Shown here in pieces: positions 12,738-27,458 of a DNA stretch of 45,740 bases. Made by a program: the position numbers and the translations under genes. Under the pieces are notes generated by a model that ran no database searches, was not told where the DNA came from, and saw nothing but the letters and a program-made list of their open reading frames with translations. How positions within the stretch are numbered: the first letter of the stretch is position 1; each line of letters begins with the position of its first letter. Source of the stretch: an uncultured Candidatus Saccharimonadales bacterium (lineage in GTDB: Bacteria; Patescibacteriota; Saccharimonadia; UBA4664); NCBI GenBank assembly GCA_964609585.1, contig CAZSRA010000007.1, positions 1 to 45,740 of the forward strand, in the 5' to 3' direction.

Positions 12738-14084
12738 ATGGCTAAAACGAGTACCAAATTCACCTGTCAAAGCTGTGGCGCTAGCTTTTCTCGCTGGATG
12801 GGTAAATGTGAGCAATGCGGAGCCTGGAATTCGCTCATCGAAGAAGTTGCCACCGTTTCGAGCGGTTTCGGCAAATCAAAACCTTCAGCCGCCCTTAGTC
12901 CCACCACCATCGCCGATGTCGCCGCCGAGCGCCTGCCTCGTATAAAAAGCGGCATCGACGAAGTTGACCAAGTTCTTGGTGGCGGTATCGTACCCGGCTC
13001 GGTAATGCTGCTCTCCGGCGACCCTGGCATCGGCAAAAGCACCCTTGTGCTACAAATTGCAACAGCTCTCGCAAAGAAACAGCCAGTACTCTATGTGAGC
13101 GGCGAAGAAAGCGCGGCTCAAATTCGCCTGCGCGCCGATCGGCTTGGACTGGGGTCAAGTGAGCTCGAACTTCTCGCCGCCACCAATATCGACGCCATTG
13201 CCGCTACCATCGAGCAGCATAAGTATCAGCTCGTCATTATCGACTCCATCCAAACCATGGCGGTAGAGGCGCTCACTGGCTCACCCGGAACGGTCGGTCA
13301 GATTACCGCCAGCGCTCAGGTTTTGCAGGCACTTGCTAAGCGTCACGGCCCCGCGATGCTCATCATTGGGCATGTCACCAAAGAGGGTAATATTGCGGGC
13401 CCCAAGATTCTCGAACATCTTGTTGACGTCGTTTTATACCTGGAAGGGGAGCGTTACGGTGCCTTCAAGGCGCTACGCGGTGTAAAGAACCGCTTTGGTT
13501 CTACGAGCGAAGTCGGCATCTTTGAGATGGTCGAGCAAGGTCTTATGGCCGTGCCAAACCCATCAGAAGCCCTGCTGGCCGAGCGCCGCCCGGGACCCGG
13601 CTCCGTAATACTTGCCACTCTTGAGGGCACGAGGCCGCTTCTCGTAGAAGTCCAGGCTCTCGTTTCGCCTACTTCCTTCGGCTACCCCAAGCGCACAGCC
13701 GTGGGATTCGACCTCAATCGCCTCAATCTCCTCGTGGCCGTCCTTACCAAACGAGCAGGGTTAAATTTGAGCTCTTCCGATATTTATGTTAATGTAGTAG
13801 GCGGATTGCGCGTAACGGAGCCAGCCGCAGATTTAGCAATTATTTTATCCGTTGCTTCGGCTATGCAGGACACGCAGGTACCAATCGGCCTCGTCGCGTT
13901 TGGTGAGGTTGGTCTCAGTGGCGAAATTAGATCAGTCGGCCAAGCGGCTCGGCGCGTAGCTGAGGCCACACGACTTGGTTACAACCTTGCCATTGGCCCA
14001 ACATTTGGCGCCACCACCGGGATGAAAGGCGTTTCCAATGTTGCAGAAGCGGTAAAATTTCTTTCGGCCCGCACAAAAAGATAA
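12738..14084 (+). CDS. radA: DNA repair protein RadA/Sms
   Basis: CQSCG...CEQC Zn finger, GDPGIGKST, KNRFG, Lon-like C-terminus. Confidence 0.98.
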   Translation: MAKTSTKFTCQSCGASFSRWMGKCEQCGAWNSLIEEVATVSSGFGKSKPSAALSPTTIADVAAERLPRIKSGIDEVDQVLGGGIVPGSVMLLSGDPGIGKSTLVLQIATALAKKQPVLYVSGEESAAQIRLRADRLGLGSSELELLAATNIDAIAATIEQHKYQLVIIDSIQTMAVEALTGSPGTVGQITASAQVLQALAKRHGPAMLIIGHVTKEGNIAGPKILEHLVDVVLYLEGERYGAFKALRGVKNRFGSTSEVGIFEMVEQGLMAVPNPSEALLAERRPGPGSVILATLEGTRPLLVEVQALVSPTSFGYPKRTAVGFDLNRLNLLVAVLTKRAGLNLSSSDIYVNVVGGLRVTEPAADLAIILSVASAMQDTQVPIGLVAFGEVGLSGEIRSVGQAARRVAEATRLGYNLAIGPTFGATTGMKGVSNVAEAVKFLSARTKR

Positions 14085-23418: not shown

Positions 23419-23504
23419 GCGGATGTGGTGGAATGGTAGACACGCTAGCCTTAGGAGCTAGTGGGGGTAACCCCGTGAAGGTTCAAGTCCTTTCATCCGC
23501 ACCA
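23419..23504 (+). tRNA. tRNA-Leu(TAG)
   Basis: Acceptor GCGGATG/CATCCGC, D-loop GGAATGGTAGAC, anticodon arm CTAGC-CTTAGGA-GCTAG, long variable arm, GGTTCAAGTCC, encoded CCA. Confidence 0.97.
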
Positions 23505-23518
23505 GATTAGTATCAACC

Positions 23519-23545
23519 AAACCACGACAGAAGTCGTGGTTTTTG
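23519..23545 (+). terminator. Intrinsic terminator after tRNA-Leu (possibly bidirectional)
   Basis: AAACCACGAC-AGAA-GTCGTGGTTT followed by T-rich tail. Confidence 0.8.
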
Positions 23546-23601: not shown

Positions 23602-24735
23602 CTATCCCGTCTCTGAATGCTCAAGCGCACGAATAAATAATTCAATATCTTTAGTTTGCAAAACTGGATCTTCAAGGCCTGCATGAAAACGAACGAGTGT
23701 ATTTTTCGGCGCATCAAGCCGACTGCTTAATTCGGTTGGCTGAAATGGCAGAACGAGACTGTGGGTCCCGCCCCATGACTCTCCAATCTTAAATACGGAT
23801 AGTGTAGAAAATAACCTATCAAGCTCAGCGTCTGTATATACTCTATCGAGCTCTACGCTGAATAAACCGTTCGTACCTGTGATGTTGCCTTTCTGACCAT
23901 CTACGAAGTAAATCCTCGGTATCTTTTTGGAATTTTTCATAGAATGCAGTAATCTCCTGGCGTTATTCCCATGTGCAAGTAGTCGTACTTTTAGAGTTTC
24001 CAGTCCACGCTGCACGAGCATAGCTGAAAAGGGTGATACAGTGTAGCCGTGAATCCGGTGGTAATAGCTTAGTTTTTTAAACAGGGTTTCCGACCTTGTG
24101 GTGACTGATCCCATAAATACGTCACTATAGCCAGCCGGATATTTTGTGAGACTGAGAATACTTATATCTACCCCATAATCCAGTGGATGCGACAAAACAC
24201 CGGCTGCCCATGTGTTATCTTCTGATGTTAATATTTCTCGTGATTTAGCTACTTCGACGACTGCATCTATATCAGTTACTTCAAATGTGGCTGATCCTGG
24301 AGATTCAATATGAATGAGCTTGGTTGTGTCGCGAATGGCCCGTTTTAGTGTGGAGAGGTCCTTTACGGAATACATGTCGTATGAGATTCCGAAGCGCTCC
24401 TGTAAATACTGCGCATATCGCCGAACAGGTGCATAGACAATATCCGGAATAAGCCAATGATCGCCCGAAGATAGCAACGCACTAAGCGCAATCAACGCAG
24501 TTAACCCACTGGGAAACAATAGCGTATGGCTACCATGCTCAAGTGCAGAAATAGAATCCTGCAGCTTTTGTAATGTCGGGTTTCCCTGGAGGCCATAGCC
24601 ATTGTCTACCCCGCTCACCACTTGGTTGATAAGCGTTGGTTTTCCGGCGCCTGCCGCTCTGTAGTCATGCAAACTGTCGAAGTACAGGCTAGTGGTTAGT
24701 TGTAATGAACGAGTAGTGTGATCGTTATTTCCCAT
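23602..24735 (-). CDS. metC: Cystathionine beta-lyase-like PLP enzyme (Cys/Met metabolism family)
   Basis: YGLQGNPT, LFPSGLTA, IESPGSATFEV, DNTWAAG, SLTKYPAGYSD (PLP lysine), IGESWGG..SL, VRFHAGLED. Confidence 0.85.
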   Translation of the reverse strand: MGNNDHTTRSLQLTTSLYFDSLHDYRAAGAGKPTLINQVVSGVDNGYGLQGNPTLQKLQDSISALEHGSHTLLFPSGLTALIALSALLSSGDHWLIPDIVYAPVRRYAQYLQERFGISYDMYSVKDLSTLKRAIRDTTKLIHIESPGSATFEVTDIDAVVEVAKSREILTSEDNTWAAGVLSHPLDYGVDISILSLTKYPAGYSDVFMGSVTTRSETLFKKLSYYHRIHGYTVSPFSAMLVQRGLETLKVRLLAHGNNARRLLHSMKNSKKIPRIYFVDGQKGNITGTNGLFSVELDRVYTDAELDRLFSTLSVFKIGESWGGTHSLVLPFQPTELSSRLDAPKNTLVRFHAGLEDPVLQTKDIELFIRALEHSETG

Positions 24736-24738
24736 GAC

Positions 24739-25773
24739 CTACTTCCACTTTCCGAGGAACGCTTTTTCATGCTGTCGCACAACTTTATTCGCCCCGAGAA
24801 TGCCGTGTTGTGTCATGTCGGGCGAGTATCTACTCGCCGGTACGATACGGCCGAGTGCTTCAGCCATTGACCGAACACTATGTGGTGCTCCGCCGCAGCA
24901 GATACCAATGTAGTTAACGCCATACTCCTGCGCTTTAAGTGCGAAATCTGCCATTTCGTTACGCGTGCACAAAAAGTGATCAAGCGACAGCGGGAACGCT
25001 CGTTCGCCTTTGTATTTAAGATATTGAAAGGCCGGGAATTGAGGTGTGGTGCGATACGGAACGGGTTGGGCTGCGATTGGACAAGATACGGCCTTTCGCA
25101 GCTTCTTGAGCAGCGGAAGCATTGTATTGGGGCCGGCTATGCAGTTAAACCCGACTACATCAGCACCTTTTTCTTCAAGGATTCGACAGCCTTCAATCCA
25201 GTCGTATCCATCTTTGCTCTGAGGGTACGTAGTTGCAAAAGTGATAAATGCTGGTAAGTTATATTTCTTGATAACTTCCAGGGCGATCAGCGCCTCTCCA
25301 ACATATTCAATGGTTTCGGCAATAATGAAGTCGACCCCTTCTTCTGCTGCCCATCGTACTTGCTCGTCATACATCTGGCGCACTTCCTCGGAACTTTGTT
25401 CTTTATTGTTGGGGTCATAGACCCAAGTGTTGCAAATATTACCGGCTACAAGCGCATTACCCTCTTCTGCAATTTCCCTTGCAATGCGAACAGCCTGTCT
25501 ATTGAGTCGTTCGAGATCTTTTTCACGGTCGATAACTCGCAATTTATCTCGATGAGCATAATACGTAAACGCTACCATTACTTCACTGCCTGCTCGCAAG
25601 AATTCACGGTGTAACTCGCGGAGTGCATCTGGATAGTCGAGCACGACTTCGGGCACATATGCGCCAGCCTTTAGATAACCCCGGCGTTCAAGTTCAAATA
25701 AATATCCTTCGGCTCCTAGCACAGCACCCTTTTGCAGCCGTTCTAGTATGTTTTGCTTTACTGGTGATGTCAT
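24739..25773 (-). CDS. Homocysteine S-methyltransferase, betaine-homocysteine methyltransferase (BHMT)-like
   Basis: EGYLFELERRGYLKAG, LHREFLRAGS, Zn ligands GFNC and GICCGGAPH; start reassigned to ATG 25773 after GAAAGGA. Confidence 0.92.
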   Translation of the reverse strand: MTSPVKQNILERLQKGAVLGAEGYLFELERRGYLKAGAYVPEVVLDYPDALRELHREFLRAGSEVMVAFTYYAHRDKLRVIDREKDLERLNRQAVRIAREIAEEGNALVAGNICNTWVYDPNNKEQSSEEVRQMYDEQVRWAAEEGVDFIIAETIEYVGEALIALEVIKKYNLPAFITFATTYPQSKDGYDWIEGCRILEEKGADVVGFNCIAGPNTMLPLLKKLRKAVSCPIAAQPVPYRTTPQFPAFQYLKYKGERAFPLSLDHFLCTRNEMADFALKAQEYGVNYIGICCGGAPHSVRSMAEALGRIVPASRYSPDMTQHGILGANKVVRQHEKAFLGKWK

Positions 25774-25802
25774 AGAAATCCTTTCATACGTTATCGAACG
25801 CA

Positions 25803-25830
25803 ATTAAATAAACCGGCCCTAGGCCGGTTT
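25803..25830 (-). terminator. Attenuator terminator upstream of the methyltransferase
   Basis: Minus strand AAACCGGCC-TAG-GGCCGGTTT then ATTTAATT. Confidence 0.75.
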
Positions 25831-25849
25831 GCGTTCAAGTATTTTGGGA

Positions 25850-25924
25850 CTATGAAAGCGGCCTAGGGCGAGACATGGGCATAGGCATCATCACAGTTTG
25901 GGCGTTATGGTGTTTTGTTTGCAT
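25850..25924 (-). CDS. Met-rich leader peptide 1, MQTKHHNAQTVMMPMPMSRPRPLS (24 aa; not in the ORF track)
   Basis: Read directly from the reverse complement; 4 Met in 6 codons; codons 19-22 contain GCCCTAGGCCG, the exact complement of the terminator 5' arm and loop. Confidence 0.8.
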   Translation of the reverse strand: MQTKHHNAQTVMMPMPMSRPRPLS

Positions 25925-25961
25925 GAGTAAATCTCAAGAGCTGTCGATAGTTGTTGTTAGT

Positions 25962-26375
25962 CTACGGGTGCAGCTTTAATCCGTGGACGATTTTGTCGAA
26001 GGTTTTACGATCTGCACGTATGGCTATCCCAACGATAGTAAATGCGCTGTCCCTTAGTGTCTTGACGACTGCTCGATTATCTATATCGTTGTCTGTTTTG
26101 AACATTCCTTCCGCATAAATTGCCGGTTTTACTCCACGATTTAGAGCCCGGTCTTTTGTCCGGATAAGGTGCTCTTGTGGTGCGGCATAGATAAAGACGG
26201 GTTGTACGATCAGTGGCAAATATTTGTGGTTGGTGGCGTCTTCATAGTCCTCTCCTATGCTTTCGGGCGCTGATGCCGCTATTCCAGTTGCCAAGAAGGC
26301 TGTGACATTGAGCTTCTGCCAGTCCAGTAGGTCGTCCCGGATCACGATGCCTACTTTAGTATCATGTGTTGCCAT
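25962..26375 (-). CDS. DUF2000 family protein (peptidyl-tRNA hydrolase II-like fold)
   Basis: KVGIVIRDDLLDWQKLNVTAFLATGI, YEDA...YLPL..QP, ...DKIVHGLKLHP; SD AAAGGAG. Confidence 0.8.
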   Translation of the reverse strand: MATHDTKVGIVIRDDLLDWQKLNVTAFLATGIAASAPESIGEDYEDATNHKYLPLIVQPVFIYAAPQEHLIRTKDRALNRGVKPAIYAEGMFKTDNDIDNRAVVKTLRDSAFTIVGIAIRADRKTFDKIVHGLKLHP

Positions 26376-26393
26376 AGCGAACTCCTTTTACAA

Positions 26394-26421
26394 TAAAAAA
26401 CCTCCGTTTTGCAGCGGAGGT
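26394..26421 (-). terminator. Attenuator terminator upstream of DUF2000
   Basis: Minus strand ACCTCCG-CTGCAAAA-CGGAGGT then TTTTTATT. Confidence 0.85.
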
Positions 26422-26451
26422 AGTTGTCGACTTGATTTATTCTACGACAAA

Positions 26452-26514
26452 CTAAAACTCCGCCTCACGGTGGGGCATCATTGCCATCATCATATTGCGG
26501 GTATTGTTAGTCAT
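26452..26514 (-). CDS. Met-rich leader peptide 2, MTNNTRNMMMAMMPHREAEF (20 aa; alternative in-frame ATG at 26523)
   Basis: 5 Met in 6 codons; 3' end GCGGAGTTTTAGTTTGTCG pairs with CGACAACTACCTCCGC, which includes the terminator 5' arm. Confidence 0.85.
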   Translation of the reverse strand: MTNNTRNMMMAMMPHREAEF

Positions 26515-26521
26515 TGGCTTC

Positions 26522-26550
26522 ATTCTATGTTGCTAGCGGTATTTTATCAA
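26522..26550 (-). promoter_or_regulatory. Promoter of the Met operon, giving a leaderless or near-leaderless leader-peptide mRNA
   Basis: TTGATA-N17-TAGAAT, 7 nt upstream of ATG 26514. Confidence 0.7.
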
Positions 26551-26597
26551 GTGATCGATATCTAAAACCTCAACATCTTCAAGGCCAACTAAAAGTT

Positions 26598-26621
26598 CTG
26601 ACATTGTATATACAATGTCAG
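26598..26621. promoter_or_regulatory. Perfect 24-bp palindrome, probable AbrB/MazE autoregulatory operator
   Basis: CTGACATTGTATATACAATGTCAG directly upstream of the mazE remnant. Confidence 0.7.
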
Positions 26622-26638
26622 TAACCGGAGGACATAAA

Positions 26639-26923
26639 ACGAAAACTACAACCTAAGTAAAAATGTGGGGCAATAGCCTGGCGATCCGCATTCCTTCTCG
26701 GGTAGCCCGAGATCTAGGGCTAACAATCGATAGCCAGATAGAAATCGCCAGCGATGGCAGCACCGCCACCATAAAACGCGAAGAGAACCCCCGCCTATCC
26801 TTAGAAGAAATTAGTCAAACCCCTCGACATACTATCCGACCATTGCAAAAGAGTTCGAATGAAAGCCGTTCAAGGGCACCAAGACACTATTTTTTTATGC
26901 TTCCACTAGACATGAATTGTTGA
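26639..26923 (+). pseudogene. mazE: Decayed AbrB/MazE/SpoVT antitoxin gene; no toxin gene follows
   Basis: GGAGG-N7-ACG AAA ACT ACA ACC TAA GTA AAA ATG TGG GGC AAT AGC (start appears as ACG, in-frame TAA); WGNSLAIRIP..A..LGL motif; similarity lost after LSLEE. Confidence 0.7.
26839..26881 (+). repeat. Direct repeat copy 1 (43 bp)
   Basis: ACCATTGCA-AAAGAGTTCGAATGAAAGCCGTTCAAGGGCACCA; differs from copy 2 by 1 indel and 2 substitutions. Confidence 0.9.
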
Positions 26924-27329: not shown

Positions 27330-27458
27330 AGGCCAAGTATACTATCCGTGTTCGGAATGACAAGATTTGTCGTCAACATGACGATTAAGTGATATGATAA
27401 ACAACCGCCACATCTGTTATTGTCATTGCGGTATGATGTCGAAAAAAAGGACACCTCT

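Follow-up and report, generated by a model that had tools for sequence, protein, structure and literature searches.

Transcription attenuation by a translated leader peptide is the textbook mode of control for Trp, His, Phe, Thr, Leu, and Ile/Val biosynthesis, and methionine (Met) genes are known to be under repressors, S-adenosylmethionine (SAM) riboswitches, or T-boxes. Here, we describe a candidate Met attenuator on the minus strand of a 45,740-nucleotide (nt) contig stretch from Candidatus Saccharimonadales (this whole stretch is the window), located upstream of a gene for a DUF2000 protein; the nearest relatives of the window's proteins are found in metagenome-assembled genomes of Patescibacteria/Candidatus Saccharimonadales (TM7). 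Structure prediction with controls and comparative genomics make it likely that the element is a Met-responsive leader-peptide attenuator of transcription, in which the translating ribosome reads the supply of charged elongator Met-tRNA, and DUF2000 and two methionine-making enzymes are most likely switched on only when charged Met-tRNA is low. What appears to be new is the Met-specific, apparently leaderless, Patescibacterial form of classical leader-peptide attenuation; the mechanism itself is textbook.

The element resembles trpL, hisL, pheL, thrL, leuL, and ilvL of E. coli in that a short upstream open reading frame (ORF) with a cluster of cognate codons precedes biosynthesis genes, and it shares with classical attenuators the alternative 1:2, 2:3, and 3:4 hairpins, an intrinsic terminator, and a stop codon placed to mask region 2. 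It differs from them in sensing Met, in its apparent leaderless initiation, in its Patescibacteria/Saccharimonadales host, in having no Rfam similarity, and in that two Met attenuators stand in series within one operon. Classical leader peptides are usually, though not necessarily, initiated at a Shine–Dalgarno sequence; because this leader has none and only 7 nt separate its ATG from a −10 box, the element is classed as a variant of the classical attenuator. As with SAM riboswitches and Met T-boxes, methionine genes would be controlled by premature termination; unlike these, the Met leader has no aptamer or T-box features, and the signal would be charged Met-tRNA as read by the translating ribosome. 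In Actinobacteria, a comparative study explicitly found methionine operons to be without any upstream RNA element (PMC1262725).

Leaderless leader peptides have been proposed in Deinococcus deserti, where a role in transcription attenuation was suggested (de Groot et al., 2014; PMC4007540). The article reports 14 such leaders; cysS, with Cys, and trpEGD serve as examples in its main text. In these, transcripts start at the AUG of short ORFs in which one amino acid is abundant, ahead of amino-acid biosynthesis or tRNA-synthetase genes, and the Saccharimonadales element would follow this plan ahead of its biosynthesis genes; it belongs to another phylum, and its start is predicted, whereas the Deinococcus starts were mapped by differential RNA sequencing (dRNA-seq). 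In mycobacteria, leaderless polycysteine short ORFs act as translational attenuators that form a multi-locus 'ribulon' (Canestrari et al., bioRxiv 10.1101/834739). As is predicted for the Saccharimonadales element, these combine a leaderless short ORF with a run of one codon type at which stalling reports amino-acid supply, and, as in the ribulon, the Saccharimonadales Met leaders precede several different Met-related operons. However, the mycobacterial ORFs sense Cys rather than Met and stall to prevent sequestration of a ribosome-binding site, whereas the competitor in Saccharimonadales is a terminator with a U tract and the Shine–Dalgarno sequence of DUF2000 lies outside the hairpins.

The features of the element, whose leader ORF (26514–26452) is termed window leader 2 to distinguish it from the downstream window leader 1 (25924–25850), are as follows:

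26545–26550, minus strand: −35-like hexamer TTGATA; the promoter-like site matches at 10 of 12 positions, and equivalent hexamers occur in orthologous leaders
26522–26527, minus strand: −10-like hexamer TAGAAT, 17 nt after TTGATA and followed by 7 nt (GAAGCCA) and then ATG 26514–26512
26452–26514, minus strand: leader ORF of 20 codons plus stop, encoding MTNNTRNMMMAMMPHREAEF, without a preceding Shine–Dalgarno sequence and ending 76 nt before the DUF2000 start
26476–26493, minus strand: Met run AUG AUG AUG GCA AUG AUG, five Met in six codons (codons 8, 9, 10, 12, and 13)
26497–26502, minus strand: region 1, ACCCGC, which pairs with GCGGAGU (26463–26457) when the leader is ribosome-free
26445–26464, minus strand: region 2, the antiterminator 5′ arm GGCGGAGUUUUAGUUUGUCG, which includes the stop codon UAG
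26413–26429, minus strand: region 3, the antiterminator 3′ arm CGACAACUACCUCCGCU, which overlaps the terminator 5′ arm
26395–26421, minus strand: intrinsic terminator (regions 3 and 4), a 7-bp GC-rich stem plus a U6 tract, −10.8 to −11.3 kcal/mol
26382–26387, minus strand: Shine–Dalgarno sequence AAGGAG of DUF2000, 13 nt past the terminator stem, outside both hairpins and unpaired in all predicted folds
25962–26375, minus strand: DUF2000 gene, 137 amino acids (Pfam E=3.8e-35), the first regulated gene

A pattern scan independently returned the promoter-like site and the terminator at these coordinates. The original prediction had proposed TTGATA-N17-TAGAAT 7 nt before ATG 26514, a Met-run mini-ORF, the terminator ACCTCCG/CGGAGGT with a T tract, and a competing antiterminator, and each was recovered on the minus strand. 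The leader ORF reads ATG ACT AAC AAT ACC CGC AAT ATG ATG ATG GCA ATG ATG CCC CAC CGT GAG GCG GAG TTT TAG, and its stop codon (26454–26452) is base-paired inside the antiterminator 5′ arm, as had been claimed. The region after the leader stop continues with TTTGTCG, a 15-nt loop, and then CGACAACTACCTCCGC. In ViennaRNA folds, GCGGAGTTTTAGTTTGTCG (26463–26445) pairs with CGACAACTACCTCCGC (26429–26414) at −19.2 kcal/mol via successive helices GGCGGAG/CUCCGCU, UAG.UU/AACUA, and GUCG/CGAC, which engages the terminator 5′ arm. The terminator stem (26421–26400) is ACCTCCG-CTGCAAAA-CGGAGGT followed by T6 in DNA, and ACCUCCG-CUGCAAAA-CGGAGGU in RNA. Since the Shine–Dalgarno sequence of DUF2000 is outside both hairpins, control would be exerted on transcription, not translation.

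In the proposed mechanism, transcription would start at, or 1 nt before, ATG 26514, and a 70S ribosome would load on the 5′-terminal AUG of the leaderless mRNA and then have to read the five Met codons. When Met-tRNA is scarce, the ribosome would stall on the Met run and cover region 1, leaving region 2 (26464–26445) free to pair with 26429–26413; this pairing, predicted by folding, would sequester the terminator 5′ arm and in vivo would allow polymerase to read into DUF2000. When Met-tRNA is plentiful, the ribosome would reach UAG 26454–26452 and mask region 2, and the hairpin at 26421–26400 with its U6 tract would terminate transcription. If no ribosome is present, region 1 would pair with region 2 and the terminator state would be slightly favored.

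These states were simulated by folding only the RNA 3′ of the ribosome, from the first nt of the A-site codon +13 to the end of the U tract. For window leader 2, the terminator probability is 0.71 with codon 1 in the A site, 0.00 with codons 2–13 (which include all the Met codons), and 0.81–0.98 from codon 14 to the stop, and this boundary, just past the last Met codon, is the same for every footprint from +9 to +15 nt. In these folds, the terminator does not form irrespective of ribosome position, an outcome on which the original prediction depended. The L086 leader, from a related contig, behaves similarly (0.02–0.17 at codons 6–13; 0.96 or more from codon 14), as does window leader 1 (0.00 at codons 10–15; 0.97 from codon 16). 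The energy comparison of the two folds that had been proposed gives −33.5 kcal/mol for the terminator state and −31.5 kcal/mol for the antiterminator state of ribosome-free window leader 2, in which region 1 pairs with region 2, so that the terminator state is favored by 2 kcal/mol.

Chance is a poor source for such a switch. None of 500 dinucleotide shuffles of the leader gave a stall-dependent switch, and with the ribosome at the Met positions the terminator has a mean probability of 0.001 in the native leader versus 0.94 in the shuffles. Likewise, 0 of 300 dinucleotide shuffles reached the antiterminator energy of −19.2 kcal/mol, and the ribosome-free leader folds at −34.3 kcal/mol (z = −2.76). 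Clusters of at least four ATG in six codons number two in the 45.7-kb window versus 0.035 expected from the shuffled window, and both are the leaders of the methionine operon.

The same arrangement recurs in related contigs. In total, 12 distinct Met-leader units of three sequence types are present in the window and related Patescibacteria/Saccharimonadales contigs. The CCUCCGC-terminator type has seven units, the first five of which lie directly before DUF2000; the CCGGCC-terminator type has three (window leader 1, L093, and L002); and the GAGCCUC-terminator type has two. The leader peptides are:

Window leader 2, CCUCCGC type: as given above
L086, CCUCCGC type: MANDTRSMMIAMMPHREAEFWLS; the DUF2000 protein is 91% identical to that of the window
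L001, CCUCCGC type: MIAQATARSMMMPRHT
L088, CCUCCGC type: MIEQSPAYSMIMPCHI
L097 (also L098), CCUCCGC type: MVITDHELMMMPPRISRS
L099, CCUCCGC type: MVTNHYQAMDMMMPPRPSRSLSSVS; heads an operon of SAM_HAT-like, B3/4-domain, cupin, and DUF2000 genes (L099:392–2908)
L081, CCUCCGC type: MTVKPVQNMDMMMPPRSPRSLSNVS; heads SAM_HAT-like and DUF2000 genes (L081:497–1929)
L093, CCGGCC type: MIALKATRAMMMPMYMPSPRPIS; precedes methyltransferase and metC-like genes
L002, CCGGCC type: MITIITNQTVVMPMSMFSPRPIS, GTG-initiated; precedes metC-like, cupin, and DUF2000 genes (L002:2176–4408)
L094 and L095, GAGCCUC type: run ...MMQMM...; both precede methyltransferase

The orthologous DUF2000 leaders L086, L001, L088, and L097 keep the −10 box, the in-frame Met run, the GCGGAG arm, and the terminator, and their peptides have diverged. 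In all seven CCUCCGC-type leaders, counted from the first nt of the last Met codon, GCGGA(A)G begins at a distance of 15 or 17 nt, which is just outside a ribosome stalled on that codon; its codon phase varies, and its distance to the stop codon ranges from −2 to +22 nt. Because this spacing is kept and the frame and the stop distance are variable, conservation is in the RNA, not the peptide. Compensatory changes are present in the terminator stem (C–G to U–A in L097; the innermost pair in L088). MAFFT, applied to five leaders, did not align the short GCGGAG arm correctly, and a formal covariation count was therefore dropped in favor of a per-leader anatomy table. The original claim that all parts of an attenuator are present with suitable spacing is thus supported by both ribosome-position folding and the orthologous leaders.

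All leaders but L095 (11 of 12) have a Pro codon within or after the Met run (MMP, MMMPP, MPMPM, MMQMMP; CCC 26475–26473 in the window). This residue could add to stalling, or it could simply be a by-product of pairing segments rich in C.

The leaderless start of window leader 2, with transcription beginning at about 26515–26514, is probable from promoter geometry. A −35 and a −10 hexamer, with the −10 box ending 6–7 nt before the start codon, are present in eight of the nine tabulated leaders, and a −10-like box at this distance is found in 11 of the 12 units (L099, L081, and L002 included). No Shine–Dalgarno sequence precedes any of the nine tabulated leaders, whereas the regulated genes do have one. 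The same geometry is found at ordinary genes: TTGTCA-N16-TATACT (27336–27363) ends 6 nt before ATG 27329 (minus strand) of a tRNA-binding-domain gene, a −10-like box lies 6 nt before the ATG of the gene starting at 12738 (plus strand), neither gene having a Shine–Dalgarno sequence, and the DUF2000 gene of L089 itself has a −10 box geometry of the leaderless type. The genome thus seems to mix leaderless and Shine–Dalgarno-led genes.

The best-surviving alternative, unlikely in our estimate, retains the Met attenuator but gives its mRNA a 5′ untranslated region, with a transcription start farther upstream and a peptide made from the in-frame ATG 26523 or from ATG 26514 by another mode of initiation. 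ATG 26523, which the original prediction did not mention, lies inside the −10 box, would give MKPMTNN..., and would matter only if transcription began further upstream. Such an in-frame ATG is found in both the window (ATG AAG CCA ATG) and L086 (ATG AGG CCG ATG), and promoter-like matches in the surrounding 4-kb region are not in excess (8 versus 6.4 expected from shuffles). However, L001, L088, L097, L093, L095, L099, L081, and L002 have no upstream ATG and yet keep a TANNNT box 6–7 nt before the start codon; neither ATG in the window has a Shine–Dalgarno sequence, while DUF2000 has a good one; and the upstream stretch, as far as the divergent MazE-like gene, shows no other evident promoter.

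Several observations weigh against the leaderless attenuator itself. Window leader 1, which is operon-internal, has neither a −10 box nor a clear Shine–Dalgarno sequence. Met starvation should also limit initiator tRNA, and hence leaderless initiation itself, which complicates the regulatory logic. Ribosome-free nascent window RNA, before the terminator 3′ arm is made, also forms the antiterminator (P = 0.84), and the no-translation state is therefore ambiguous. For L001, L088, L097, and L095, the terminator wins at equilibrium wherever the ribosome sits, so that these leaders would need kinetic trapping. Finally, the L087 leader is decayed, and L089, L091, L092, and more distant DUF2000 loci have no leader; the device is therefore clade-restricted and dispensable.

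As equilibrium folding alone fails for those four leaders, kinetic trapping was modeled, crudely, via nascent-RNA folds with shuffle controls. With the ribosome on the last Met codon, the nascent antiterminator sequesters the terminator 5′ arm in nine of nine leaders tested and in all nine is more stable than the controls (0–14 of 300 shuffles reach the native energy). Kinetic trapping is likewise needed in the E. coli trp attenuator, whose 3:4 hairpin is more stable than 2:3.

Loss of the leader can be followed at L087:3880–4000, where the DUF2000 protein is 88% identical to that of the window: ATGGACATGATGATG and GCGGAGGTTTT are kept, and the terminator 5′ arm and the reading-frame arrangement have been lost. 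This locus is, judged by its sequence, a natural decayed version of the attenuator. No leader was found upstream of DUF2000 in L089/L090, L091, or L092, and the L096 contig is too short to include the operon start. When a strict Met-cluster filter was applied to 80 DUF2000 loci from a genome collection, only L001 passed; the other-phylum loci had no leader, and the element is therefore not general to DUF2000 genes. A metagenome scan with a single protein returned five loci, none of them a close relative.

It is highly improbable that the Met-rich ORF is incidental and that the promoter and terminator define a small non-coding RNA or a constitutive partial terminator, with DUF2000 independent of methionine. 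Short ORFs are common by chance, and the window has nine clusters of three ATG in six codons, most of them inside genes and out of frame; yet the two denser clusters both fall in leaders of one methionine operon, the Met run is in frame in 12 units of three unrelated sequence types, and both its conserved spacing to region 2 and the shuffle results for the switch argue against coincidence. Similarly improbable is a function in trans of the peptide, or of the attenuated transcript of about 120 nt, besides or instead of attenuation in cis. The Sinorhizobium trp leader peptide peTrpL is described as acting in trans (PMC7298713), and the recurrent Pro after the Met run (MMP, MMMPP; 11 of 12 leaders) would fit a function of the peptide; however, beyond the Met(-Pro) core, the peptides vary freely in length and composition, as is typical of cis-acting leaders. 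Least likely of all is that a SAM/Met riboswitch, T-box, or antiterminator protein picks between the hairpins without translation, since, even though methionine genes of other phyla are usually under SAM riboswitches or Met T-boxes and alternative hairpins exist whatever selects between them, the best Rfam match has 18.8 bits against a cutoff of 70 with no SAM or T-box family, only about 55 nt of RNA, unconserved across leader types outside the complementary arms, lie between the Met run and the terminator, and conservation instead concerns the Met run, which stays in frame, and how far it lies from region 2.

Searches for a described counterpart of the Met attenuator were negative. An Rfam scan of the whole window at gathering scores returned only a tRNA and no leader, riboswitch, or T-box; a permissive scan of 25700–26700 (E up to 10) gave noise of 19 bits or less and no leader, SAM riboswitch, or T-box; and none of the curated leader families in Rfam, among them Trp_leader, His_leader, Thr_leader, and Leu_leader, gave a covariance-model match at the gathering score. 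Searches of open-access papers returned leader-peptide attenuators of other amino acids and no Met-codon or methionine-rich leader peptide, with an earlier description elsewhere possible, and nothing relevant was found there on Saccharibacteria combined with leaderless, or with methionine and homocysteine.

The rest of the operon and its surroundings include the following features:

25850–25924, minus strand: window leader 1 ORF, MQTKHHNAQTVMMPMPMSRPRPLS, between DUF2000 and methyltransferase; homologous leaders in L093 and L002
25810–25830, minus strand: second intrinsic terminator, AAACCGGCC-UAG-GGCCGGUUU; the competitor GCCCUAGGCCG is inside leader ORF 1
24739–25803, minus strand: homocysteine S-methyltransferase gene (Pfam E=1.9e-43), start TTG 25803 or ATG 25773
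23602–24735, minus strand: Cys/Met-metabolism pyridoxal phosphate enzyme, cystathionine beta-lyase-like (metC-like) by sequence similarity, the last gene of the operon
26663–26923, plus strand: divergent MazE/AbrB-like ORF upstream of the element, antitoxin-like, with no obvious toxin partner downstream

The second attenuator (25924–25810) would act after DUF2000 by the same logic, and because it follows DUF2000, the methyltransferase and metC-like genes would need two successive read-through decisions. The leader 1 homologues in L093 and L002 have a −10 box, unlike window leader 1. The true methyltransferase start is probably ATG 25773, about 37 nt past the terminator, because the database's own gene call on the contig (P0121) is 344 amino acids. 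The products of the DUF2000-distal genes make methionine from cystathionine and homocysteine; with a methyltransferase, a metC-like enzyme, and two Met-codon leaders, the operon is therefore methionine-related. In L086, a 73-amino-acid ORF after DUF2000 (L086:1319–1540) is a homocysteine S-methyltransferase fragment (Pfam E=5e-4), so that the linkage between DUF2000 and the methyltransferase was once there and has since decayed.

At the end of the operon, a tRNA-Leu gene (anticodon TAG; 23419–23504, plus strand) converges on it and is followed by a strong hairpin, AAACCACGAC-AGAA-GTCGTGGTTT (23519–23542), which has T runs on both sides and could terminate both converging units. Between the attenuator promoter and the divergent MazE/AbrB-like ORF lies a perfect 10-bp palindrome, CTGACATTGT-ATAT-ACAATGTCAG (26598–26621), which may be an operator of the MazE/AbrB-like gene or a bidirectional terminator. 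A plus-strand ORF at 26257–26565, antisense to DUF2000, is regarded as spurious.

Nine genomes have DUF2000 under a Met leader, either immediately behind it or at the end of the operon (the window, L086, L001, L088, L097, L002, L099, L081, and L087, the last with the decayed leader). No literature on DUF2000 was found in open-access papers, and by sequence the hypothetical protein Atu0240 (PDB 2gax) is its one relative with a solved structure. The AlphaFold model of the window protein (predicted local distance difference test score, pLDDT, 82) matches 2gax with a template modeling (TM) score of 0.84, and then members of the peptidyl-tRNA hydrolase 2 (PTH2) family, namely Bit1 1q7s, Sulfolobus Pth2 1xty, 1rlk, and 2zv3 (E 4e-4 to 5e-3; TM 0.55–0.67). 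The DUF2000 fold is thus predicted to resemble PTH2. In the L099 operon, DUF2000 occurs together with a B3/4-domain protein; this domain we take to be the editing domain of the beta subunit of phenylalanyl-tRNA synthetase (PheRS). Folds or domains of these two kinds act on tRNA esters, and, as a hypothesis only, DUF2000 may have a methionine-linked role, possibly on a tRNA ester.

The Met leaders before the larger DUF2000-ending operons (L099, L081, and L002) suggest a Met-responsive regulon in Saccharimonadales. In a far more speculative extension, which we regard as possible but doubtful, there would be a methionine 'ribulon' in Saccharimonadales (TM7), in which three unrelated types of leaderless Met-codon attenuators coordinate a salvage regulon of homocysteine S-methyltransferase, metC-like lyases, SAM_HAT-like protein, PTH2-like DUF2000, and B3/4-domain protein. 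DUF2000 would then be an enzyme induced by Met starvation, with a tRNA or peptidyl-tRNA linked to Met or homocysteine as its substrate, and the serial attenuators would set two induction thresholds.

A Met-codon attenuator poses a special question, in that methionine is also needed to initiate the leader peptide. To our knowledge, very little is known on gene regulation in Patescibacteria (bacteria of the candidate phyla radiation, CPR); the Met-leader elements predict a concrete regulon in this group and suggest routine leaderless translation there. That DUF2000 recurs behind Met leaders, in nine genomes, gives a first functional lead for the family, and the ribulon interpretation, if true, would be the first functional handle on this uncharacterized, widespread family. 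The reduced genomes of Patescibacteria are widely reported to lack most amino-acid biosynthesis, and the Met regulon may show which methionine-related precursors these bacteria depend on.

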